Below are positions 5,274 to 16,121 of a stretch of DNA of 16,121 nt, in pieces (the stretch's first letter is position 1; each line of letters opens with the position of its first letter). The notes under the pieces were generated by a model, which was not told the origin of the DNA, did no database searches, and worked only from the letters and a program-made list of their open reading frames with translations. Made by a program: the position numbers and the translations under genes. Origin of the DNA: a virus (taxonomy: Duplodnaviria > Heunggongvirae > Uroviricota > Caudoviricetes); the IMG/VR virus record IMGVR_UViG_2795385955_000003; one strand, given 5' to 3'.

Positions 5274-5309
5274 GGAAAACGCCCCGGCCTTCGGGCCGGG
5301 GCGTTTTCC
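5274..5309. terminator. Bidirectional intrinsic terminator ending the late operon
   Basis: Perfect 16-bp stem GGAAAACGCCCCGGCC / GGCCGGGGCGTTTTCC around a C(UUCG)G tetraloop, 15 nt after the last lysis gene. Confidence 0.92.
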
Positions 5310-5336
5310 CGTACCAGCCGGTTGCCTCCACGCATC

Positions 5337-5353
5337 GTATAGCGCGCTATACT
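5337..5353 (+). promoter_or_regulatory. Palindromic operator copy 1 overlapping the -10 (TATACT) of the HTH gene
   Basis: GTATAGCGCGCTATAC is a perfect 16-bp palindrome (5337-5352). TATACT at 5348-5353 lies 6 nt before ATG 5360. Confidence 0.8.
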
Positions 5354-5359
5354 GCGGGC

Positions 5360-5581
5360 ATGGGTGCAACGTCGGATGCGCAGGAGGCAGCCCGGTTGGC
5401 TGTCCGACGTCTGGCACGTCGCCGTCACCGCCACGAGACAACGCGCAAGCGCCTCGATGCTGAGTTTTACGCGGCGATAAAGGCAGCCCGGGACCTGGGC
5501 GTCGGTGCAACGGCGCTGGCCCGCGATGCCGAAGTGACACGCGACGGCATATACAAGATTTGCCAGACTTCCTCCGATTAG
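5360..5581 (+). CDS. Small helix-turn-helix DNA-binding protein (73 aa), probably leaderless
   Basis: Basic N-terminal helix, then ATALARDA-EVT-RDGIYKI HTH pattern; no SD, -10 hexamer 6 nt upstream. Confidence 0.8.
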   Translation: MGATSDAQEAARLAVRRLARRRHRHETTRKRLDAEFYAAIKAARDLGVGATALARDAEVTRDGIYKICQTSSD

Positions 5582-5603
5582 CTGTCCTTCTGCTGACTTC
5601 CAT

Positions 5604-5626
5604 AGTGCACGGTGTTACCGTGCACT
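5604..5626. promoter_or_regulatory. Perfect inverted repeat upstream of the ESX cassette (operator or hairpin)
   Basis: AGTGCACGGT-GTT-ACCGTGCACT, 10-bp arms, in the gap between the HTH stop (5581) and ATG 5666. Confidence 0.55.
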
Positions 5627-5665
5627 CAATGGCATAGCGGAGTACTTCAGATTAGGGCGGGGCCG

Positions 5666-5977
5666 ATGTCCGACGACAAACTCAAAATTGATCTGGAGGC
5701 GCTGGACAAGCTGTCCCCGGAGCTGGGCGATATTGCTAAGCGGGTGAACGCTAAGGCAGCCAGCCCGGCGAAGATCGCAGCTGGGGAGGCGCCGTCGTTG
5801 GTGGCGGTGCGTGAACTGGTTACCCAGGCGATTCCGGGTTTGCAGCGGGCGTTCGCGGGTCGCTGTTCCAACGTCGCGGACCTGTCGGTACAGACCAAGA
5901 ATGGGTTCGGGGACACCGAGGAACACGTGACACGGCTGATCGCCTCGGTGACCGGGCTATCGCGGGGTGATCGGTAA
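5666..5977 (+). CDS. WXG100-like / type VII secretion target protein (103 aa)
   Basis: ATG at 5666 (MSDDKLKIDLEALDKLSPEL...). About 100 aa, helical, with an FxxxE (FGDTE) variant of the C-terminal YxxxD/E ESX secretion signal; coupled (TAATG) to a WxG protein. No WxG motif of its own. Confidence 0.7.
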   Translation: MSDDKLKIDLEALDKLSPELGDIAKRVNAKAASPAKIAAGEAPSLVAVRELVTQAIPGLQRAFAGRCSNVADLSVQTKNGFGDTEEHVTRLIASVTGLSRGDR

Positions 5978-8199
5978 TGGCCGGGTACTCGCTGCGGCTG
6001 CTGCTGTCCACCAAGCCGGAGAACGCCATCGAAGGTATGCGCCAAGCGATCCTGGCCGCCACCGAATTGCAGGCCGAGGCCAAGTCCTACAAGCACGCCA
6101 TCGACCGGCCCGGCGGGCAGGAATGGCAGGGCAAGGCCGCCACCGCCGCCCAGGACACCGCAGCCGCCGACGAGAAGGTGGTCTACGGGGCCACCGAGCA
6201 CGTCCGCGATGAAGGCAACGAGGCGTTGAATACGTTGGCGTTCAAGGTCAAAGAGAGCCACAGCAAGCCAGTTCAGATCTACAACGATATGACCAGCCAC
6301 GGCTACACGGTCTCCGAAGACCTCAAAGTGGACTGGATCGTGCCGCCCCGCGCCACCCCCGAACTCATCGCGCAGGGCAAGAAAGTCGCCGAACGCGTCA
6401 CCCGCGAGATCCGCGCCGCCTATGACACATGGTGGGCCGCCGAAGAAGAAGCCCAAGCGGAAATCCGGGCCATCATCAGCGAGCTGAACACCTCCTACAA
6501 CCCCATCGGCGGTCTGACGGCCAACGCCGGACACCTCGATGGCGCCTACTTGCAAGGCGGCACCCAGTGGGACAAAGACGTTTTGGGCCGGGTGCAGGCC
6601 GCATCCACGCTGGATGCTCAGCAGCTCCAAGACCTCGCGGCTGGCAAAAAAGTCGATATCGGGTCGAACCGGATGCAGTACCTGTACCAGTTCGCGCACT
6701 CCTTCGACGGCAAGTCCCCCGCCGAGATAGCCGCCATCAAAGACGGCTTACCGCCCGCCCAACGCGACGCCATGACCCGCGCCCTCGCGATAGTCGCCAA
6801 CGACCAGGTCCGCTCCGGGGTGGAGAACACCAGCGGTGTCACCGAGGCCACCAAGAAGAACTTCATCCCCGGCGCTGGATCACTGGCCAACCTGTCCGAT
6901 GGCATGGCCGCCGAGATGACCCGTGGTGATCGGGTCGCTAGTGGCCCGCTCGGTGTTGGACCCGCCGCCGACAAGGCCGGGTTGCCGAACATCGAACTGC
7001 GCGGCGTTGACGACATGCAAGCGATGGCCAAGATCTTCGACGGCGCTGGCCCCTACCTCAACGGCTCCGAAGCCGGAAAGGCGATGCTGGATGCGGCCAG
7101 CCAGTACTCCAACGCTGACATCGACAGCCACTCGGCCGACAAACCCACCCACCTGACCTCCGATGCCCATGGCCCGCTGACTAACGCCCTAGCCGACATC
7201 TATAAGAGCGGGGCGCAAGATCAGGTGGGGGTGCACGAGATCGTCACCGGTGAGCCCACCGAGGGTGAGAAGTTCCTCCGCGGTGTGCTGGGTGAGAACT
7301 ACGGGGATCAGTCCGGCAAGGTCGATGACACCCTGGCCTGGGCTGGCGATCACTCCCAGAAGGGGGCCGAGGTCGCCAACCAGGTGGGTCACTACATGGC
7401 CGAGCACAAAGACGAATTGCAGCACATGGCCGGGGGCGGCAACTTCGCCCAGAACAACCCCGAAATGGCCGGAACCACAGCCAAAGTCGAGGGTGAGTAC
7501 CTGAGCCAGTTCGCCGATTCGGACCCCACCCATCGGCAAGACCCCGGCATCAAGCCGTTCACCAAGGCCGACGAGATGCGGGACATGATCTCCACCTTCG
7601 ACAAGGGCCAATACTCCGGCGACATCATCAACGAAGCCGGACATCAACAGCACCAGCAGCTCCTCAACGACGCCGCCCGCACCGGCTCGGACCTAGATCT
7701 CAACGCCGCCGGGCGACTCTCTCAGGGCCTGGCCGATGGGGCACTGGACTCGGTCGCTGACAAACCCGCCGACGAAGGCATGGAAGCTGCCAAGAAACTA
7801 CTGGGCAAGCTGCCCCACGTGGGCGATGCCATCGAAGTCCTTGACACCGCACAAAAACACATCGACGATGCGTCGAAACTACCCGAGGGCTTCGCCCAAA
7901 ACCTTGCCCAGTCAGGCAGTTTCGGCAACATTCAGGCATACCAAACCAGTGTCCTCGATGCCCTTCTGCAAGCGCACCCCGGCATTGCCAACGACCCCGA
8001 CATCGGCAAGTACATCAATAACGGACACCTCGACATCTCCTCCCTAGATGAGCAGGGCGTACGCCAGGCGAAGTCTGATCTGTCGAACTGGTTCCAGCAC
8101 ACCGCCCCACGGGATTACAACTTCAACATGGAGCACTGGAACGACCAACAGGACATGGGACGCCGATACCGCGACTGGGGACCAGGGACTAGCAAGTGA
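5977..8199 (+). CDS. ESX-secreted polymorphic-toxin-like protein (740 aa): N-terminal WXG100-like domain, long helical body, unrecognised C-terminal domain
   Basis: WQG at residues 50-52 within a helix-hairpin N-terminus; lies between a WXG100-like gene and a coupled lipoprotein gene. No catalytic toxin motif recognised by eye. Confidence 0.72.
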   Translation: MAGYSLRLLLSTKPENAIEGMRQAILAATELQAEAKSYKHAIDRPGGQEWQGKAATAAQDTAAADEKVVYGATEHVRDEGNEALNTLAFKVKESHSKPVQIYNDMTSHGYTVSEDLKVDWIVPPRATPELIAQGKKVAERVTREIRAAYDTWWAAEEEAQAEIRAIISELNTSYNPIGGLTANAGHLDGAYLQGGTQWDKDVLGRVQAASTLDAQQLQDLAAGKKVDIGSNRMQYLYQFAHSFDGKSPAEIAAIKDGLPPAQRDAMTRALAIVANDQVRSGVENTSGVTEATKKNFIPGAGSLANLSDGMAAEMTRGDRVASGPLGVGPAADKAGLPNIELRGVDDMQAMAKIFDGAGPYLNGSEAGKAMLDAASQYSNADIDSHSADKPTHLTSDAHGPLTNALADIYKSGAQDQVGVHEIVTGEPTEGEKFLRGVLGENYGDQSGKVDDTLAWAGDHSQKGAEVANQVGHYMAEHKDELQHMAGGGNFAQNNPEMAGTTAKVEGEYLSQFADSDPTHRQDPGIKPFTKADEMRDMISTFDKGQYSGDIINEAGHQQHQQLLNDAARTGSDLDLNAAGRLSQGLADGALDSVADKPADEGMEAAKKLLGKLPHVGDAIEVLDTAQKHIDDASKLPEGFAQNLAQSGSFGNIQAYQTSVLDALLQAHPGIANDPDIGKYINNGHLDISSLDEQGVRQAKSDLSNWFQHTAPRDYNFNMEHWNDQQDMGRRYRDWGPGTSK

Positions 8200-8945
8200 C
8201 ACCACTTCACGCACGTGCGGTGTTCGCTGCCGCAGCGTCCCTGCTGATGGCCTCGTGCACACACGACACACCGAAAGCGCCTGCCCCGTGGGATTCCAAC
8301 GACCGCACGACCGTCCGGTGGATACCCAACCCTGCCGCTGACCTCATGTCTCCCGAGGGCACCTTCATCCGCGCCGCGATGGAGTCCTGGCGGGCCGCTC
8401 AAGTAGGCCAGGGGCAGGGTATGGATGCAATCAGTGCCGGGGGATACCCCGGCTTCGACCATGCCTTCAACAACGTCTGGAAAGCCGGAGAGGTCGGCGG
8501 CACCGTCCGATTCGAGCACCCCCTAGTCGGTACCGACTACTACGAGGTCGTCGCGCTAACCCGAGACGGCGACCGGTACAAGGCGGGTGTCTGCAACTAC
8601 ACATCGCAAATGGCAGGGCAGCTCGAAGACGGTCAATACTCAGGCCCCGGACCTAAACCGATGAATGGCGGCGAATGGATCACCTTCGGCCCCGACCCGA
8701 AACTCCCCGCCGACCAACAACATGCACCACCTGCTCAGCAAAAGGGTCCAGCCGAGCGACCCACGGACAACGTGTTCGGCACGTGGGTTCTCTTCGACTA
8801 CGACCCACGGATCGCGACCACCTTGCCGCAGTGCGTGAAGTTCGCACCGGGTACACCGACGAATCTTCCCGACCCCAAGAAGCGGTCCGACCCGCCACCG
8901 ACCCTGCCGCCCGACCCTGGCTGGCCCGAGGGCAGCAAGGCGTAA
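8196..8945 (+). CDS. Lipoprotein, putative cognate immunity protein (249 aa)
   Basis: Signal peptide with lipobox LMASC (Cys21); GTGA overlap with the effector; two further Cys and a Pro-rich C-terminus (PPPTLPPDPGWP). The immunity role is inferred from position only. Confidence 0.72.
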   Translation: MTPLHARAVFAAAASLLMASCTHDTPKAPAPWDSNDRTTVRWIPNPAADLMSPEGTFIRAAMESWRAAQVGQGQGMDAISAGGYPGFDHAFNNVWKAGEVGGTVRFEHPLVGTDYYEVVALTRDGDRYKAGVCNYTSQMAGQLEDGQYSGPGPKPMNGGEWITFGPDPKLPADQQHAPPAQQKGPAERPTDNVFGTWVLFDYDPRIATTLPQCVKFAPGTPTNLPDPKKRSDPPPTLPPDPGWPEGSKA

Positions 8946-9002
8946 CCTGTGGCCAAGTTCGGGCACGGGCGCATCTCTCCGCTTTTTATCGGCGCCGCCT
9001 AC

Positions 9003-9452
9003 TTAACATCCTGCGGCGTCCGCTAAGTCGCGCTGCCTGTCGGTCCGTTGTGTTGGTGCCGTTGCGCAAGCCCGGTCTACCTCACGGCCGCCGCGGTTGT
9101 TGTTGGACTGTGCTTGGTTGACCCGCTCTAGGCGGGTTGGACACACGTAGCGCATCCCGCGCCGGACGATGGCCATGGTGCCGTCAGTGTCGGCGGCGAT
9201 CATCGACTCGAATTCGTCGACGGTCTTGTCGCAGTTGGCCACGGTTAGCTCGTACAGGCGCGCCATGTCGGGTGACGCCTCCGGGCTGGAGGCCATGATC
9301 TCTGCCTCCCATCCACTCATGTCGACGGCCGCCTGGGGCAGTATCGCTGGCTTCTGCGGCACGGTGGCCGTCGCTTCCTGCACCGTCCCACCGCTGCACC
9401 CCGCGGTCACGGCCGCTGCAACCGCCATGTACAGCCCCCACCTAATTCTCAT
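9003..9452 (-). CDS. Lipoprotein (149 aa), probably leaderless
   Basis: MRIRWGLYMAVAAAVTAGC lipobox (Cys19), four further Cys; TAAAGT -10 on the minus strand (9464-9459), 6 nt before the ATG. Confidence 0.78.
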   Translation of the reverse strand: MRIRWGLYMAVAAAVTAGCSGGTVQEATATVPQKPAILPQAAVDMSGWEAEIMASSPEASPDMARLYELTVANCDKTVDEFESMIAADTDGTMAIVRRGMRYVCPTRLERVNQAQSNNNRGGREVDRACATAPTQRTDRQRDLADAAGC

Positions 9453-9506
9453 GGCCGAACTTTAAACCGGGGTAGCCGCGATAAGGGGGCGTTGACGATA
9501 AACCTC

Positions 9507-9535
9507 TCGACAAAACGTATAGCACGCTATACGTT
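9507..9535 (+). promoter_or_regulatory. Promoter with palindromic operator copy 2
   Basis: TCGACA (9507-9512)-N17-TACGTT (9530-9535). AACGTATAGC-AC-GCTATACGTT palindrome at 9514-9535 spans the spacer and the -10. Confidence 0.78.
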
Positions 9536-9574
9536 CAAGCAGGATTGCCAGCGAACACTAGGGAAGGTCCCACC

Positions 9575-9892
9575 ATGTCAATTGCAAGCACTGCAATCAC
9601 GCTGACCGCGGACGAGCTGGATGCAGTCAGCCGCTCCATGCTTGTTCACGAACCGCACTCGGACGTACGTCCGGCATTCGACTGGGTCGGCCGGGGTCAC
9701 CTGCCGCCGTGTCTGGCCTACCGCGGCGACCGTGTCGTCGAGTTCGGATACGAGGTCGCGGTGGTAGTGGCGGCCCGGCAGGGAGGTGGCGACGTCGACG
9801 CGATCCGTAGGGCCATCGAATCCCTCGGGCCTTGTCATCGCCAGGGCCGTATCCACTTCTGGCCCCGCGTGATTCCCGCGGTTGCCGACTGA
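9575..9892 (+). CDS. Hypothetical protein (105 aa)
   Basis: GGAAGG RBS at 9562-9567, ATG at 9575 (MSIASTAITLTADELDAV...); flanked by a promoter and a terminator. Confidence 0.72.
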   Translation: MSIASTAITLTADELDAVSRSMLVHEPHSDVRPAFDWVGRGHLPPCLAYRGDRVVEFGYEVAVVVAARQGGGDVDAIRRAIESLGPCHRQGRIHFWPRVIPAVAD

Positions 9893-9909
9893 ATCCTCCT
9901 GGTTACTTC

Positions 9910-9950
9910 TCACCCCCGTCCCATGTGGGCGGGGGTGATTTCTTTTTCTT
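9910..9950 (+). terminator. Intrinsic terminator
   Basis: TCACCCCCG(T)CCC-ATGT-GGGCGGGGGTGA stem followed by TTTCTTTTTCTT, 17 nt after stop 9892. Confidence 0.82.
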
Positions 9951-9961
9951 CATGCTCACGC

Positions 9962-9991
9962 TTGCCTAAAACGTATAGTGCGCTATACATT
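9962..9991 (+). promoter_or_regulatory. Promoter with palindromic operator copy 3
   Basis: TTGCCT (9962-9967)-N18-TACATT (9986-9991); GTATAGTGCGCTATAC at 9973-9988. Confidence 0.78.
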
Positions 9992-10030: not shown

Positions 10031-11215
10031 ATGACCGCACCAACACTGCCCGCAATACCCGCCCGCACCCTGCGCAACGCCAACATCGGAAACCTCATCA
10101 CGCTGCTGGAGCAGCAGCACCGGCAGAAGGTAGACGTAGTCATGCCCGTCTCCGACGTCCGGTTCACCAGCGGCAACCTGGTCATCTCGGACCAGGCACC
10201 CGACATCAACGACGAAGGCGTCACCGACTTCAACGGGACCTACCGGATGACCGACCGCTCCGACAGCCAGCTCGGCGACGTCCTCGACATCCCCACCCGC
10301 TACGTCCGCAAGCTGCGCGCACAGCACCTGGAACTGATGGACACCAACGTCAACGAACTGGCCCGGGTACACGACCCCGCCAAGAAGGTCCTCGTGCGCA
10401 TGCTGTCGGGCAGCGACCCCATGTACCCCGGCACCCACGGCATCGTCCGCGCTGTGCTGTCAGACCGGTACGGCATCCGCGACAACCTCGACACCGTGCT
10501 CGCACTGCTCGACGGGATGCGCGCGGCCGGTCTCGGCGCCCAGCACATCCGTGGCGCCGACCTGTCCGATGAGCGGCTATACCTGCGAGTCACCGCGCCG
10601 GAGCTGGAGGTCGTCGCACCCAAGCTGCTGGAGGGCTACCGTTCACCGTGGGCAGGCACCGCACACGGCGGCGAAGCCGCCAACACCCTGCCCGTCGTCT
10701 ACGCAGGAATGCTGGTCACCAACAGCGAGACCGGCGGCGGCGCACTCACCATCACCCCAGAGCTGCGCATCAAGATCTGCGACAACGGCCTCACCATCAA
10801 CGCCGACGCCATGCGCAAGATCCACCTCGGCAAGAAGCTCGACGACGGCAAGGTCAACTGGTCGGCAGACACCATCGACGCCGCCAACGACCTGATCAAG
10901 AAGCAGGTCCGCGACGCCGTCGCGTCCTTTATGAACGTCGACTACGTGAAGACCGCCATTGAGAAGCTGGAGGAGACCAGCGGCACCCCGCTCACTGCCC
11001 CGGCCGACGTGATCGAGGTCGTGGCCAAGAAGCTGTCCTACAGCCAGGACGAACAGCGCGGCATCCTCGACCACTTCATCAAGGGCGGCCAGATGACTAC
11101 GGGCGGTGTTATGCAGGCCGTCACTTCATACGCCCAGCTGATTGCCGACGTCGACCGGTCCAACGAGTTCGCGGCCACCGGTGTGGACGCCATGCTCGTG
11201 GCGGCCGGACGATGA
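10031..11215 (+). CDS. DUF932-family protein (394 aa)
   Basis: GGAGG RBS at 10021-10025, ATG at 10031. RAVLSDRY..DN and G..VTNSETGGG..ITP..RIKICDNG motifs recognised as DUF932-like. Confidence 0.75.
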   Translation: MTAPTLPAIPARTLRNANIGNLITLLEQQHRQKVDVVMPVSDVRFTSGNLVISDQAPDINDEGVTDFNGTYRMTDRSDSQLGDVLDIPTRYVRKLRAQHLELMDTNVNELARVHDPAKKVLVRMLSGSDPMYPGTHGIVRAVLSDRYGIRDNLDTVLALLDGMRAAGLGAQHIRGADLSDERLYLRVTAPELEVVAPKLLEGYRSPWAGTAHGGEAANTLPVVYAGMLVTNSETGGGALTITPELRIKICDNGLTINADAMRKIHLGKKLDDGKVNWSADTIDAANDLIKKQVRDAVASFMNVDYVKTAIEKLEETSGTPLTAPADVIEVVAKKLSYSQDEQRGILDHFIKGGQMTTGGVMQAVTSYAQLIADVDRSNEFAATGVDAMLVAAGR

Positions 11216-11601
11216 GCGCCGAGGCGCGGTGCCCGCTGTGTGCGGACATCATGGCTGAGCCTGAGGTACGTAACTCGCTGTCTCGGTTCGTCGACTCCTA
11301 CATCTGCAACCGGTGCGGGACCGCCGAGGCCCTGCTCAACATCTCTCAAGAGGCGCGGCGTTGCCTGTACTTCGACGAGGTCGCAGGCACCATGCTGGTC
11401 ACCGAAGACGAGCCGGGGCACTACCCGTTCGCAGCGACCTTCCCGGAGGGTGCTAAGGCCCTCGCGTGGATCGCGGTGTACGTGAAGGCCGTTAATGCGC
11501 GCCTTGGGCTCAGCGAGACGGACGCCGAGGGCATCGTGATCAGCTCGATGTTCGGGGTACGACAGAAGTTCATCGACGCGCACTACGTGGGTCGAGGCTA
11601 G
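11212..11601 (+). CDS. Zinc-finger-like hypothetical protein (129 aa)
   Basis: CPLC...ICNRCG (two CxxC pairs); ATGA overlap with the DUF932 gene. Confidence 0.72.
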   Translation: MSAEARCPLCADIMAEPEVRNSLSRFVDSYICNRCGTAEALLNISQEARRCLYFDEVAGTMLVTEDEPGHYPFAATFPEGAKALAWIAVYVKAVNARLGLSETDAEGIVISSMFGVRQKFIDAHYVGRG

Positions 11602-11660: not shown

Positions 11661-12251
11661 CTACTTTCCGTCAAGCAAGCCCGGCAGGTCCGCCCGCAGG
11701 GTGGTGAACTCCCTGCGTAGAGTGCTGATTTCGTCCCGAACAATGTCGGTCTGCTGATCCACCGCCCCAGTCAAGTCTTGTAGGTGAAGACCAATCGCAA
11801 CTAATGCTCGCGCCTGTGCCCACTGGATCTTCAAGTCCGGGGGCAGTACGTCGGGGTCCACGTCGGTGAGAACTGCGTGCGGCTTTTGAAGTGAGCTGAG
11901 GAGCGCATCTCGTGGAACGCGCCTGTCGTCCTCGGCCATGGTGGTGTTCCCTTCGCTCGGTGGGTCGACTAGCCGCAGTAGCGGCCGTTGGTGTTCCTGG
12001 GCGACTTCTTGTTGCAACGCCTCGCCCACACACTTCGCGATGTGATCTGCGAGGCCCCGTATGGCGTCATCGGTAACGTAGTACTTCGCCGCCTGCCGCC
12101 CAATCCTCATCCGTTCGGCAATCAGGTCCAGATGGCTCGAAACATCCTCACGAGCAACCTCTTGGGACACTGCCAATCCGTGGAAGTCGGCGAGGTAACG
12201 GACCAGTAACGTCGCGCGGTCGTCGAGCCAGGGCGAACGGCGGGGCGGCAT
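11661..12251 (-). CDS. Hypothetical protein (196 aa), possibly two fused ORFs with an internal start at 11939
   Basis: Track ORF directly downstream of the integrase; internal GAAGGGA SD plus ATG at codon 105. Confidence 0.65.
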   Translation of the reverse strand: MPPRRSPWLDDRATLLVRYLADFHGLAVSQEVAREDVSSHLDLIAERMRIGRQAAKYYVTDDAIRGLADHIAKCVGEALQQEVAQEHQRPLLRLVDPPSEGNTTMAEDDRRVPRDALLSSLQKPHAVLTDVDPDVLPPDLKIQWAQARALVAIGLHLQDLTGAVDQQTDIVRDEISTLRREFTTLRADLPGLLDGK

Positions 12252-13395: not shown

Positions 13396-13536
13396 CTACG
13401 CAGCGGCGGTGTGGCGCCTGGTGGACCACCGCCGTTCTCGCTGCTCAGAGAGGTCGGTAGGCTCAGTGTCTATGCAGGTCAACGGGTTTCGAACACCTAA
13501 CCAGAAGGTTAGGGGTTCGAATCCCTTCGGGCGCAC
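13396..13536 (-). other. Orphaned 3' end of the phage repressor gene, split at attP (46 codons ending AAA*)
   Basis: The minus strand through the core reads VRPKGFEPLTF-WLGVRNPLTCIDTEPTDLSEQRERRWSTRRHTAAA*. The C-terminal AAA resembles an ssrA/Clp degron. Confidence 0.78.
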
Positions 13537-13538
13537 CA
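13502..13538 (+). repeat. att common core: 3' half of tRNA-Arg (probably ACG); not a complete tRNA
   Basis: CAGAAGGTT-AGGGG-TTCGAAT-CCCTT-CGGGCGC-A-CCA gives the variable loop, T-arm, acceptor 3' strand and CCA. The complementary 5' GCGCCCG and the D-arm are absent upstream. Isotype is recalled from the mycobacterial tRNA-Arg(ACG) sequence. Confidence 0.88.
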
Positions 13539-13605
13539 TCTATTAGCGAGAATGAGGATTTGGTGGTGGCCGACACGCCCATAATCTGACACTTTCCCGC
13601 TATTT

Positions 13606-14769
13606 TCAGCCGCCACTTTGGGCGTACTGCTCTAGGGCTTCTCTCGCGTCTGGCCCGCGTGTGCGCCGTACCAGGTAATGGGTCTCAGTAGTCAGCCGGT
13701 TGGCGTGGGATAGCTGCTGCTGGGCGCCATCCGGCCCGAGTGCGTCTCTTACAACCGTGGCGACCGTCCGCCTGAATGAGTACGGCGTAACCCAGCTCAG
13801 ATCATCAGGGAGTGCCGCCCGCAGCGCGCGCCGCATATTGGCCAGGCTCATCCAACCGCCGTTGCGATTGGCGAAGAGAGGACCGTCGATGCCCGATTCG
13901 CCGATCAGCGCTACGACCGACTCCACGCCGAACTTGGGCAGTAGAACGGTGTGCGGTGGCGCATCGCCTTTCCGGGTGTCCTGGCGGTGTAGAGGCTTGC
14001 CGGCAATGCGTCCGTGATCAATCAGGGTGCCGGTGAGGGCCACCTCTGGTGGGTCGGCAAGGACATCCACTTCTGATACCCGTATGGCCAGCACTTCATT
14101 GGGGCGCCCGCCCGTCGCGGCCAGTAGGTCTACGAATGCAGGTAGTAGCCGACCAGGCTTCGGGCCAGGGCCGGTTCGGTCGGCATAGGCCCGAACCGCC
14201 GCGCGGACCCGTACAAATTCGGCTGGCGTCGCTGCGCGGATGGGCTTCCGGGTCGTCTTGATCTGCTTAGCCTCGCGTATCGGGTTAACGGGCATTACGT
14301 CGAATCGGCACGCCATCGAGTACATACCCATGAGCACCATCCTCAGCCGTTTGGCTTGACTCTTGGATGCCATGCCTTGGATGTAGTTGTGTGCCTCTTG
14401 GGTCTCCAGCTCGGTGACCCGCAACGAGCCCAGTTGCGCATCACCGTGCGTCCTCCACACCGCCCGATACTGATCAACCGTCTGTTGCTTAACACCGTCC
14501 TCGGCTGCCTTTGCTTCGACCCATAGGTCGAACAGGTCGCCGAGGGCGGTTTTTTCATTCACTACCTGACCAGACTTCGGTGGGCGCCGTTTTACCAAGT
14601 GCCGCTGCAAGATACGGCGCGCGTCCTCGGCAGACTTATCACTCGACCGTTCCACCCGCCGTCGCTTGCCATCTGAATCACGGACATAGGTGCTGGCGAA
14701 AAACTTGCCACCAGAAGACCGTTCGGTGATGCGGCCATGCTCGCCAGGCCGCAGGCGTTCCCTAGGCAT
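13606..14769 (-). CDS. int: Tyrosine integrase with N-terminal arm-binding-type domain (387 aa)
   Basis: MPRERLRPGEHGRI...YVRDSDGKRRRVERS N-terminus; GGRPNEV (R), YSFRR (Y in place of the HxxR His), QLSH and THY. ATG 14769 overlaps the regulator stop (ATGCCTAG). The track start at 14790 is an alternative. Confidence 0.88.
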   Translation of the reverse strand: MPRERLRPGEHGRITERSSGGKFFASTYVRDSDGKRRRVERSSDKSAEDARRILQRHLVKRRPPKSGQVVNEKTALGDLFDLWVEAKAAEDGVKQQTVDQYRAVWRTHGDAQLGSLRVTELETQEAHNYIQGMASKSQAKRLRMVLMGMYSMACRFDVMPVNPIREAKQIKTTRKPIRAATPAEFVRVRAAVRAYADRTGPGPKPGRLLPAFVDLLAATGGRPNEVLAIRVSEVDVLADPPEVALTGTLIDHGRIAGKPLHRQDTRKGDAPPHTVLLPKFGVESVVALIGESGIDGPLFANRNGGWMSLANMRRALRAALPDDLSWVTPYSFRRTVATVVRDALGPDGAQQQLSHANRLTTETHYLVRRTRGPDAREALEQYAQSGG

Positions 14770-15373
14770 CGTTGTCGACTTCCCATCCACGGTTGGACAT
14801 CTCCGTGGCGAGTCGGTCTAGGTTTGCGCGGTCGAGGTCAATCAAGGCATGTATAGATGCTGGATTCGCGTCTTCGGCGCCGTGATCCAGATGGTTCTGA
14901 GCCATCGCCGCCACCCTTTCGGTACTAGCGATTGCGGATTGCAATTCGTGCCGACGCCGCGATAGTTGAATGCGCCGCATGTTCTCTCGCTCGGCGTCGA
15001 TCTGGGCTGGGTCAACGGCGCCCTCGATTGAGGCCCGACGGACCTCTCCTGAGAACCACCGCGCCGCAGCAATTGAGCGGGCGGGGCGATTGGGCAGCAT
15101 CTCAACTTCACCATCAGGCAGGTCGGGGTAGAGCAGCGCTACGGGCGGCATATCCAGTGCGGCAGCCAGCACGACCAGTTCGGCAACGCCAAGAACACTG
15201 CCACGGTGGCCCGAGTCCAGCTTTGAGATGACCGTGGCGGGTACCCGGTAGCCGAGTTCCGCCGTCCGCTCACTCAGCCATGTGGCCGATCTGCCGCCGC
15301 GGGCCTCCTTCATGGCCTTACCTACCCGCTTGACCAGCTCGGACGCCCAATTGTCATCTCGATCATTCACCAC
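14762..15373 (-). CDS. Xre-type HTH transcriptional regulator (203 aa), probably leaderless
   Basis: VGKAMKEARGGRSATWLSERTAELGYRVPATVISKLDSG..ELVVLAAALD HTH. GTG 15373 is preceded by TCGACA-N17-CATACT-N6; the track start at 15439 is probably too long. Confidence 0.8.
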   Translation of the reverse strand: MVNDRDDNWASELVKRVGKAMKEARGGRSATWLSERTAELGYRVPATVISKLDSGHRGSVLGVAELVVLAAALDMPPVALLYPDLPDGEVEMLPNRPARSIAAARWFSGEVRRASIEGAVDPAQIDAERENMRRIQLSRRRHELQSAIASTERVAAMAQNHLDHGAEDANPASIHALIDLDRANLDRLATEMSNRGWEVDNDA

Positions 15374-15484
15374 ACGCCGAGTATGCGCGGTTTTCTTGCG
15401 TCTGTCGAATTTTGGCGTAGAGTCAGACGTGTCACGCAAGATTCACGAAGGTTCTCTTCGTACCACGAATAACCAGGAGGGAAG
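15374..15484. promoter_or_regulatory. Overlapping divergent promoters with inverted repeats
   Basis: Minus strand: TCGACA (15408-15403)-N17-CATACT (15385-15380). Plus strand: TTGCGT (15396-15401)-N16-TAGAGT (15418-15423). Inverted repeats TCTTGCGT (15394-15401)/ACGCAAGA (15434-15441) and CGTCTGTC/GTCAGACG (one mismatch). Confidence 0.65.
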
Positions 15485-15655
15485 ATGAACGATTGTCCGG
15501 CCGTGCAGCGGGCCCTCGGCGGCGTTAGCAGGTCGACAGTGCGGCGTTTGTGGCGTTCGGGCCAGCTCAAGTCTGTGCAGATCGGATCACGCAGGTTCTC
15601 GACAGATGGCCAGATAGCCGCCTACATAGCCCAGTTAGAAACCGTCGCGGTATGA
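15485..15655 (+). CDS. xis: Excisionase-like HTH_17/MerR-type DNA-binding protein (56 aa; absent from the ORF track)
   Basis: AGGAGG RBS; MNDCPAVQRALGGVSRSTVRRLWRSGQLKSVQIGSRRFSTDGQIAAYIAQLETVAV* shows the xis pattern (SRSTV..L..SG.L..V.IG.RR). Confidence 0.85.
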   Translation: MNDCPAVQRALGGVSRSTVRRLWRSGQLKSVQIGSRRFSTDGQIAAYIAQLETVAV

Positions 15656-15819
15656 GCACACGGCCCCAAGAAGGTCACGCCGATCTTGGCTTGATCGAGG
15701 ACGACCACACTCCAGAAATGCGAATGGCCCCGACCAGTACCGCCAAGCACCAGGTCGAGGGCCACTCCGACTACCTATCTGAGAACAGGAGTCACCATCA
15801 TGATAACCAGCAGTTCTGA
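15652..15819 (+). CDS. Small hypothetical protein (55 aa)
   Basis: ATGA overlap with xis; 3' part of track ORF 15550..15819; no recognisable motif. Confidence 0.4.
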   Translation: MSTRPQEGHADLGLIEDDHTPEMRMAPTSTAKHQVEGHSDYLSENRSHHHDNQQF

Positions 15820-16121
15820 CACTGAGCAACCCTCTCGGTGTCCCGTAGGCATGGCTGACCGGCTGGCGGAAACCACCGGAGCAGGGGCATGCCCCGTACC
15901 GCCGGGGGCTGTCGAGGTGAGCCGGTGGTACATCACCGAAGGGGATTTCAGCAAGCCCTACACCCGCACCATCGAGGGAAAGCCTGTAGCCCTTGAGGAT
16001 TGGGTGCGTTTCGTGCCCTCGTGCATCCAATCATCCAATGGAACAACACGTTCCGTTGTTGTGGCGTTGGAACGTACCAGCTATGACGGTCGCTGGCTGG
16101 ACACCGGCCTCGGGCTCAACG
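15800..16121 (+). CDS. Hypothetical protein, 3'-truncated by the window
   Basis: AGGAG RBS near 15787-15791, ATG at 15800, frame open to the window end (MITSSSDTEQPSRCPVGMADRLAETTGAGACPVPPGAVEVSRWY...). Confidence 0.68.
   Translation, partial: MITSSSDTEQPSRCPVGMADRLAETTGAGACPVPPGAVEVSRWYITEGDFSKPYTRTIEGKPVALEDWVRFVPSCIQSSNGTTRSVVVALERTSYDGRWLDTGLGLN

Follow-up and report, generated by a model that had tools for sequence, protein, structure and literature searches.

A recurrent palindrome in cargo promoters of MabK-type Mycobacterium abscessus prophages and a small HTH protein as its candidate repressor

KorA of the IncP plasmids is a small helix-turn-helix (HTH) dimer acting on a 12-bp palindromic operator that lies over the -10 of several promoters, including that of its own operon. 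Aca genes are located downstream of acr genes in the same operon. The cargo genes of prophages, the so-called morons, are usually pictured as independent units of promoter, gene and terminator. Mycobacteriophages have immunity systems built on integration-dependent repressors of the BPs type with palindromic operators, or on cluster A repressors with stoperators (PMC4557955, PMC9934374), and phage D29 encodes Gp36, a small MerR-like repressor that exists alongside the immunity functions, uses GC-rich direct repeats and tunes several transcription units (PMC12266134). Here, we analyse the right arm of a Mycobacterium abscessus prophage of the cluster MabK type, which has prophiT37-1 and prophiGD43A-5 among its relatives, and describe a palindrome in it whose copies we read, with a probability of about 0.55, as operators of one self-regulated 73-aa HTH repressor throttling six cargo promoters.

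The stretch of DNA analysed (IMG/VR record IMGVR_UViG_2795385955_000003, 16,121 nucleotides, hereafter the window) revealed three exact matches to GTATAG-N4-CTATAC, at 5337-5352, 9517-9532 and 9973-9988, compared to none in 200 dinucleotide-preserving shuffles; scanning the window with up to three mismatches yielded no fourth copy. Six of the nine GTATAG hexamers of the window derive from these palindromes, with 1.8 being expected by chance. All three sites are intergenic and overlap -10 elements of the mycobacterial TANNNT type, so that the initial annotation was right about their positions and their placement, while a strict scan for E. coli-type consensus promoters called none at these palindromes. 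Operator 1 (5337-5352, GTATAGCGCGCTATAC) overlaps the -10 TATACT at 5348-5353, which is accompanied by a -35-like TTGCCT (5322-5327) at a non-canonical spacing of 20 nt. It lies downstream of a symmetric hairpin (5274-5309; RNA fold of -37.5 kcal/mol, z -7.2) that is kept in all relatives and, as a predicted bidirectional terminator, would end the lysis cassette and insulate the HTH promoter. Operator 2 (9517-9532, GTATAGCACGCTATAC) forms the core of the 22-bp palindrome AACGTATAGCACGCTATACGTT, flanked on one side by a lipoprotein-like gene running leftward (9003-9452) and on the other by a rightward gene for a 105-aa protein; the rightward promoter consists of TCGACA (9507-9512), 17 nt and TACGTT (9530-9535), and on the minus strand a mirror-image TACGTT (9514-9519) points towards the lipoprotein gene. 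Operator 3 (9973-9988, GTATAGTGCGCTATAC) is part of the promoter TTGCCT (9962-9967), 18 nt, TACATT (9986-9991), and follows a plus-strand intrinsic terminator (9910-9938, a 12-bp stem and then a T-run) ending the 105-aa unit. With sites 1 and 3 behind hairpins and site 2 between divergent genes, the earlier proposal of independent promoters is well borne out, each operator-like site lying in a promoter of its own.

Whole-prophage scans of eleven complete relatives gave five or six sites per prophage, always drawn from the same set of six promoters: five exact palindromes in prophiT37-1, and six sites each, in the same six places and with one mismatch allowed, in prophiGD43A-5 and nine complete IMG/VR records. 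A provirus that is 89% complete displayed four, and a reversed control pattern gave no match in the same scans. The regulon of three sites originally suggested was thus real as far as it went, but too small, since there are six per prophage, three of them outside the window. By placement, the operator covers the -10 of six promoters per prophage, including that of the HTH gene; binding there by the HTH protein is our inference. The HTH gene occurs in 12 palindrome-bearing MabK-type records as well as in the partly sampled divergent prophage L058, and directly adjoins operator 1 in all of them. The MabQ prophage prophi79-1 shares the toxin cassette, but shows neither a palindrome nor the HTH gene; phage Typha encodes a homologue of phrog_1362, but has neither a palindrome upstream of it nor the HTH gene. 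A search of plasmids and GTDB species genomes did not find the gene either, and the protein has only three matches among 1.8 billion protein representatives. Motif and HTH gene therefore go together throughout the relatives, as the initial annotation had asked to see, the gene being found only in palindrome-bearing prophages, though these form one related group in which co-occurrence is confounded by shared ancestry.

Across the units, the -35 (TCGACA, TTGCCT or TTGCTT) is located 4-5 nt upstream of the palindrome, and the -10 is made of the final three palindrome bases followed by NNT. In four units, leaderless transcripts are predicted, with the ATG 7 nt downstream of the -10. The target promoters have good -35 and -10 elements, and the HTH gene's own promoter a poor -35. 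In L058, whose HTH protein is 59% identical, both half-sites are kept at all three sites while the flanks have drifted, and at operator 1 the half-sites are kept across HTH variants of 59-99% identity; as they never change among the relatives, there is no covariation with the variants. The left half-site is conserved to the same degree as the right one and is symmetric to it. Sigma-A promoters require no specific sequence in the spacer, and equal conservation of a half-site that the sigma factor does not need argues for a dimeric binder. Judged from its sequence and position, the palindrome is operator-like, resembling a repressor site inside a promoter core.

The candidate repressor is encoded at 5360-5581 (plus strand) by a predicted leaderless gene, the ATG of which coincides with the predicted +1, 7 nt past the -10. 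Its 73-aa product matches phrog_686 (E 2.7e-6, residues 7-71 on profile positions 10-72 of 76), and two variant proteins do so at E 1.4e-4 and 4.1e-4, which makes for a weak but consistent match to the family. The family phrog_686 comprises small phage HTH DNA-binding proteins. An AF2 model (pLDDT 83) has four helices, with helices 29-45, 50-57 and 61-72 behind a long N-terminal one and the last two forming the HTH. Neighbours among AFDB clusters are small HTH proteins, resolvase HTH domains and sigma-70 region 4 (TM 0.74-0.88, E 0.02-0.1), and matches in the PDB are weak (Spo0J, Z 8.1; KorB, Z 6.1). Pfam HTH families (HTH_3/XRE, HTH_31, MerR, HTH_7 and others) gave no hit to the 73-aa protein at E <= 10; for the variant P0003, the best was HTH_31 with E 0.018 and 15.8 bits, under the cut-off of 27. 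The HTH assignment of the initial annotation is hence backed by the phrog_686 match and the predicted fold, but not by a Pfam HTH family, and the protein is predicted to be a helix-turn-helix DNA-binding protein. A ribbon-helix-helix identity of the Reg576 type was rejected, the model being all-helical and devoid of an N-terminal beta-strand. With a site directly before a small HTH gene, the suggested design of an autoregulated repressor fits, and the 73-aa protein is the likely repressor of the palindrome promoters.

Promoter 1 would serve, besides the HTH gene, an ESX/WXG100 polymorphic toxin cassette (5666-8945, plus strand), which comprises a WXG100-type gene (5666-5977), the gene of a 740-aa toxin with EspA-like TPR_23 (5977-8199) and a putative immunity gene (8196-8945), and is 91% identical to that of prophi79-1. 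The spacer between HTH gene and cassette (5582-5665) contains a hairpin with a 9-bp stem at about 5603-5625; since it has no clear -10, HTH gene and cassette are probably transcribed together from promoter 1. The HTH gene of prophiGD43A-5 has no gene behind it on that strand. To the left of operator 2, the minus-strand gene at 9003-9452 encodes a 149-aa lipoprotein-like protein with a signal peptide and a ...VTAGC lipobox, conserved at 56-97% among relatives; to the right, the 105-aa protein (9575-9892, plus strand; leadered, with the Shine-Dalgarno sequence AGGGAAGG) shows no family match and is conserved at 70-100%. Operator 3 precedes genes for a 394-aa phrog_1362 protein and a coupled 129-aa CxxC...CxxC protein (phrog_6105, Zn-ribbon) at 10031-11601 on the plus strand. 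The former (E 6e-97 to phrog_1362, conserved at 91-99%) has homologues in 244 phage records, including lytic myoviruses of cluster C. Its earlier label DUF932 found no Pfam match (PF06067) even at E <= 10 and survives only as a likeness to language-model neighbours, the nearest clusters having DUF932 in 12-30% of their members. Beyond the window, the sites stand ahead of a BrnT-like toxin-antitoxin pair, an operon of secreted protein, YrlA array and Ro in which the Ro gene is followed by that of a 76-aa regulator-like protein, and a block with a second toxin-immunity cassette that ends in DUF5642 and SUKH-1 immunity-type genes. By its predicted functions, the cargo is mostly of the lysogenic-conversion type (toxin-immunity, toxin-antitoxin, Ro/Y-RNA, lipoproteins).

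We propose that the palindrome, filling the spacer between -35 and -10 of a sigma-A-type promoter and contributing the first -10 bases, would most likely be bound by a dimer of the leaderless 73-aa protein. Occupying the -10, this dimer would obstruct RNA polymerase and so repress its own promoter as well as throttling the five others. The six promoters would drive accessory units, none of them lytic or immunity genes: the HTH gene with the ESX toxin cassette, the divergent lipoprotein and 105-aa genes, the phrog_1362/Zn-ribbon pair, the BrnT-like toxin-antitoxin pair, the secreted-protein/Y-RNA/Ro genes, and the block ending in the second toxin-immunity cassette. The outcome in the lysogen would be a low steady-state expression of cargo independent of copy number, with a transient overshoot when the DNA enters a cell lacking the 73-aa protein. 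Such a design resembles that of KorA in its small, presumably autoregulated HTH protein, in the palindrome on the -10 of dispersed promoters of one mobile element, and in the proposed overshoot on entry followed by steady repression. It differs in belonging to a mycobacterial prophage and not a plasmid, in governing cargo cassettes and not genes for replication, transfer or partition, and in having no evident co-repressor comparable to KorB. Two language-model look-alike clusters of the 73-aa protein have Pfam KORA in 47-49% of their members, which is a lead only, and KORA (PF16509) itself gave no Pfam match to the protein. With Aca, the locus would share a small HTH protein that represses the strong promoter of its own gene via an inverted repeat over the core promoter; the Aca operon layout does not apply, as the HTH gene comes first behind a terminator, WXG100, toxin and immunity genes follow downstream and the operator recurs at five more promoters. 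Like Gp36 of D29, the candidate would be a small phage repressor outside immunity that tunes several transcription units, whereas here there is no MerR match and the sites are AT-rich inverted repeats in promoters.

Phage-encoded repression through short repeated sites would also be common ground with mycobacteriophage immunity systems. The present prophage uses an integration-dependent XRE repressor for this purpose, yet in prophiT37-1 the repressor-excise control region (1-470) carries repeats of the ATGCGCAT type and lacks the GTATAG palindrome, all palindromes of that prophage lying elsewhere; the motif would govern cargo and not lytic genes. An operator of the lysis/lysogeny switch was thus dismissed, there being no palindrome at the repressor or early lytic promoters of prophiT37-1, and so were cluster A stoperators, which are asymmetric, 13-14 bp long, in one orientation and many per genome, whereas our sites are symmetric, six per genome and inside promoters. 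A control region with other repeats and no palindrome makes it plausible that a second circuit exists next to the immunity switch, in line with what the initial annotation had supposed. For the MabK prophage prophiGD43A-5, Dedrick et al. (2021, PMC8092301) reported RNA-seq evidence that its toxin-immunity locus is expressed during lysogeny, from which it follows that repression, if any, is partial and that the locus is not simply off after entry. Two papers on these prophages (PMC8092301, PMC9934374) mention neither the motif nor a role for the HTH gene, which is annotated as hypothetical.

Another phage protein might read the palindromes, which we regard as unlikely: the 76-aa protein, the N-terminal domain of a 196-aa protein (11661-12251, minus strand, co-transcribed with the integrase) or the XRE-type immunity repressor. 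Wherever palindrome-bearing prophages were checked for them, all three proved conserved, the immunity repressor at 84-99% and the N-terminal domain at 49-65% identity. The 76-aa protein is even encoded within an operon that a palindrome would control, but its family is broad, with members of 47-75% identity on 26 non-MabK viral contigs that lack this palindrome within 6 kb. In prophiT37-1, the 196-aa protein carries an HTH annotation, and its N-terminal domain is confidently predicted to form four helices; it has, however, neither a family match nor a meaningful structural match, and integration separates its gene from the repressor promoter in the prophage. Against the immunity repressor speak its own control region without palindrome in prophiT37-1 and its activity in the lysogen, where the palindrome-linked toxin locus of the relative is expressed (PMC8092301).

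A circuit working mainly at entry, with strong promoters that are active in a naive cell until they become silenced and with a cargo for anti-defence or establishment, we consider distinctly improbable. Overshoot is inherent in negative autoregulation by a sensor-less repressor, and this much of the proposed burst on entry remains plausible; good target promoters next to an HTH promoter with a poor -35, the presence of phrog_1362 in lytic cluster C phages, implying that it can act during infection, and the DUF932-like neighbours of that protein would fit as well. The subsequent shut-off, however, is at odds with the lysogen expression of the relative's locus (PMC8092301), and the idea of an anti-defence or establishment module is poorly matched by a cargo that is mostly of the lysogenic-conversion type and for which PADLOC matched no defence or anti-defence family. 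Very unlikely, finally, is a motif without any dedicated phage binder, be it a promoter module copied among cassettes or the site of a host factor. Conservation of the right half-site, overlapping the -10, could partly reflect promoter function, but the left half-site in the spacer is invariant and symmetric to it; simple copying of a module is made less likely by the lack of any relationship among the sequences flanking the six sites. All IMG/VR records with multiple copies are of this MabK-type prophage, and a 102-kb provirus record contained no additional palindrome in its roughly 25 kb of flanking host DNA.

Repression by the 73-aa protein thus being our preferred reading, at least six cargo units of this M. 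abscessus prophage, which is of clinical relevance, would be joined by one operator into a regulon that appears separate from the immunity switch. More tentatively, the protein may be a sensor-less master regulator of all lysogenic-conversion modules, independent of the immunity repressor; if so, the whole cargo would switch on together after one knock-out, or through an antirepressor of the phage acting at induction. If the 73-aa protein is the repressor, its deletion or overexpression would tune the toxin-immunity, toxin-antitoxin and Ro/Y-RNA cargo jointly and so test the effect of this cargo on the host, and operator and repressor could together be used as a compact system for regulated promoters in M. 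abscessus.

The palindrome GTATAG-N4-CTATAC has exactly three matches in the window, at 5337-5352, 9517-9532 and 9973-9988 (operators 1, 2 and 3), and a rescan found the positions (5337, 9517, 9973) and sequences in the initial annotation to be correct. Dinucleotide-preserving shuffles gave no match in 200, no extra copy was found in the window at up to three mismatches, and six of the nine GTATAG hexamers in the window fall within the three sites, against a chance expectation of 1.8. The everted form CTATAC-N4-GTATAG was not found in the window.

A strict E. coli-consensus scan called no promoters in the window, and the promoter assignments are therefore a reading by the rule TANNNT, the mycobacterial -10 consensus in transcription start site maps of M. 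tuberculosis and M. smegmatis. Read in this way, promoter 2 comprises TCGACA (9507-9512), a spacer of 17 nt and TACGTT (9530-9535), promoter 3 comprises TTGCCT (9962-9967), 18 nt and TACATT (9986-9991), and promoter 1 has the -10 TATACT (5348-5353) with a poorly spaced -35. At all three sites the palindrome occupies the spacer, and its final bases begin the -10. As a dimer on the palindrome would cover the -10, the geometry is that of repression by occlusion, not activation, and spacers of 17-18 nt speak against a mechanism of MerR type. In the 73-aa HTH gene (5360-5581, plus strand) the ATG comes exactly 7 nt past the -10 of site 1, making its mRNA leaderless on this reading. Site 2 forms the centre of a longer, 22-bp palindrome, whose mirror TACGTT on the opposite strand faces the lipoprotein-like gene (9003-9452, minus strand), so that this site can serve divergent promoters. 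A hairpin of -37.5 kcal/mol precedes site 1, and a hairpin followed by a T-run precedes site 3.

Upstream of this region lie tail-fibre genes, lysin A (Amidase_2), a cutinase-like lysin B and a holin, and downstream a tyrosine integrase and then a second integrase. The DNA around sites 2 and 3 is 97% identical to prophiT37-1 and 88% identical to prophiGD43A-5, both M. abscessus prophages of cluster MabK whose immunity depends on integration. Gene order and identity together identify the window as the right arm of a MabK-type prophage, with lysis cassette, accessory region and integrase. The ESX/WXG100 polymorphic toxin cassette (5666-8945; TPR_23, EspA-like) is 91% identical to that of the unrelated MabQ prophage prophi79-1, and a published account describes such swapping between MabK and MabQ prophages (PMC9934374). 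Past the integrase and a remnant of the repressor 3' end, the stretch 13396-16121 holds small ORFs and, on the minus strand at 13606-14790, the second tyrosine integrase, an arrangement in keeping with two elements stacked at one att site.

The 394-aa phrog_1362 protein behind operator 3 (10031-11215) displays 91-99% amino acid conservation among relatives, far more than its neighbours (HTH protein 59-64%, lipoprotein 56-79%). Homologues occur in 244 phage records, lytic cluster C myoviruses among them, and in phage Typha the homologue likewise adjoins the integrase. The 105-aa gene (9575-9892, plus strand) has a homologue with 92% amino acid identity in prophiGD43A-5 (MW584167; L044:12039-12350), also on the plus strand behind operator 2; in MW584167 this stretch is instead assigned to a minus-strand gene, 114, probably a strand mis-call.

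The initial annotation had proposed a regulon of three sites. These stand, but whole-record scans extend the set to six places per prophage, three of them outside the window. prophiT37-1 carries five exact palindromes; with one mismatch allowed, prophiGD43A-5 and nine complete IMG/VR records carry six sites each, in the same six places, and an 89%-complete provirus record carries four. A reversed control pattern gave no matches in the whole-record scans. Single-site matches to the 15-base pattern in IMG/VR metagenomes lacked an HTH homologue and were set aside because their count is within chance expectation. Place D, on the minus strand, is directly upstream of a BrnT-like toxin-antitoxin pair. 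Place E, on the plus strand 48 bp from D, precedes a leaderless ORF that lacks annotation and encodes a secreted protein; YrlA-like Y-RNAs, arranged in an array, and a Ro-like gene come next. Place F is upstream of prophiT37-1 genes 51-59, a block ending in DUF5642 lipoprotein and SUKH-1 immunity-type genes. Sites D and F are present in relatives, and in units 1, D, E and F the ATG follows the -10 by 7 nt, in leaderless fashion.

Some details of the units at D and E were also recorded. The annotated start of the BrnT-like toxin gene (prophiT37-1 gene 47, L067:1571-1580) is a GTG; 9 nt further upstream, in the same frame, an ATG stands exactly 7 nt past the -10 of operator D, which matches the leaderless layout seen in the other units. 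The leaderless ORF directly behind operator E (L067:1665-1994, prophiT37-1 23664-23993) encodes 109 aa; the product has a signal peptide, its tail is rich in Gly and Ser, and it has no Pfam or PHROG family match; about six YrlA-like modules and the Ro-like gene come after it. Just before the Y-RNA array, prophiT37-1 (L067:2048-2068) and all MabK relatives carry an everted perfect palindrome, GCTATACCGCGGTATAGC, with the half-sites of the operator in opposite order. A variant, CTGTACCCCGGTACAG, occurs in one non-MabK contig (L094:3668), near a homologue of the 76-aa protein encoded after the Ro gene.

Alignments of 10-13 distinct versions per site revealed half-sites that are invariant except for position 11 of site 1 (C, T or G). 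The more distant prophage L058 (GCA_015023905.1), with an HTH protein only 59% identical and a different holin family, has kept the three right-arm sites with both half-sites intact, while their flanks have drifted. The operator family is thus real and conserved. Sigma-A promoters require no specific sequence in the spacer. The left half-site is located there and is nonetheless conserved and symmetric, which points to a dimeric binder. Prophages with a 64%-identity HTH variant have an imperfect self-operator, GTATAGCGCG[T/G]TATAC, and five perfect target operators; the imperfect site may tune the set-point of the repressor. A further hairpin with a 9-bp stem (GTGCACGG..CCGTGCAC) at 5603-5625, between the HTH gene and the WXG100 gene, is seen in the window and in prophiT37-1 and is weak in L058, which has TTGACA there; this region may be an attenuator or an internal promoter.

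The 73-aa protein matches no Pfam family, KORA included, but matches phrog_686, "HTH DNA binding protein" (E 2.7e-6). In its predicted fold (pLDDT 83) a three-helix HTH comes after one long helix. The neighbours in AFDB, small HTH proteins of actinobacteria, align with TM 0.74-0.88, and neighbours by language model are small HTH_23/HTH_7/KORA-type proteins. Sequence search and Foldseek gave no significant PDB match; weak ones are to the HTH of resolvase, Spo0J and KorB. The family is tiny, with three matches among 1.8 billion representatives and two clusters by word search, too narrow for a covariation test of HTH and half-site.

Motif and HTH homologue, whose co-occurrence the initial annotation had taken as a check, were found together: the gene lies directly behind operator 1 in all palindrome-bearing prophages examined (twelve MabK-type and L058), which form one lineage, so that the association is confounded with descent. 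prophi79-1, with the same toxin cassette, has no HTH gene and no site even at one mismatch; Typha has no HTH gene, and the promoter of its phrog_1362 homologue is of ordinary type and lacks the palindrome. The gene was found in none of the plasmids searched and in none of the GTDB species genomes, apart from one spurious Rhizobiaceae match. Such co-occurrence and narrow distribution bear the signature of an autoregulated repressor with a private operator.

The sites could instead be read by the 76-aa protein, the XRE immunity repressor or the 196-aa protein (11661-12251, minus strand), which we regard as unlikely for the three together. The 76-aa family is broad, and 26 of its non-MabK members have no such palindrome nearby; BLASTP gave no match between this protein and the 73-aa one. 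The XRE repressor is conserved in all relatives and the 196-aa protein is present in all of them, and the attempt to rule out either by absence consequently failed. The XRE repressor's own control region, however, has ATGCGCAT-type repeats and not the palindrome. In prophiT37-1 the repressor/excise control region (L007:290-470) displays repeated ATGCGCAT/TATGCGC motifs, likely the operators of this integration-dependent repressor. The 196-aa protein has an N-terminal domain of four predicted helices, conserved in relatives, but its fold search gave no meaningful match and profile comparison with the 73-aa family none at all. A dedicated repressor for the operator family, with the 73-aa protein as the candidate, is plausible.

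The closest system in logic is KorA of IncP plasmids, a small HTH protein with a short palindrome placed at the -10 of several promoters, its own among them; without a KORA Pfam match, the 73-aa protein is an analogue and not a member. Unlike the genes of Aca proteins, the 73-aa gene is first in its unit, has no acr partner and would have five further target promoters. Reg576-type proteins are RHH, whereas the 73-aa protein is predicted to be all-helical. In contrast to cluster A stoperators, the sites here are symmetric and inside promoters, and Gp36 of D29 differs in being MerR-like and binding direct repeats (PMC12266134). Full-text literature searches, and the MabK papers themselves, yielded neither an account of the motif nor a function assigned to the 73-aa gene.

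Toxin-immunity, toxin-antitoxin, Ro/Y-RNA and lipoprotein genes make up the cargo, together with the widely distributed phrog_1362 gene. This cargo belongs to the lysogenic-conversion class, and PADLOC defence models matched none of its proteins, so the gene content does not support the anti-defence or establishment role suggested initially. A burst on entry followed by shut-off had also been envisaged. From RNA-seq of strain GD43A (GEO GSE161710), Dedrick et al. 2021 (PMC8092301) report that prophage promoters drive expression of the prophiGD43A-5 toxin-immunity locus in the lysogen, while most of this prophage is silent; entry is therefore not followed by a shut-off of the circuit, and of that proposal a brief overshoot is the part that may stand. 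In prophiGD43A-5 the toxin cassette runs leftward, with operator 2 and the lipoprotein gene upstream of it, and its 160-bp gap shows no clear -10 for a separate promoter. A sensor-less, negatively autoregulated repressor should keep the expression of its targets low and independent of copy number, with a brief overshoot on entry. The proposed mechanism is classical; what is new is its use, the protein family and the operator.
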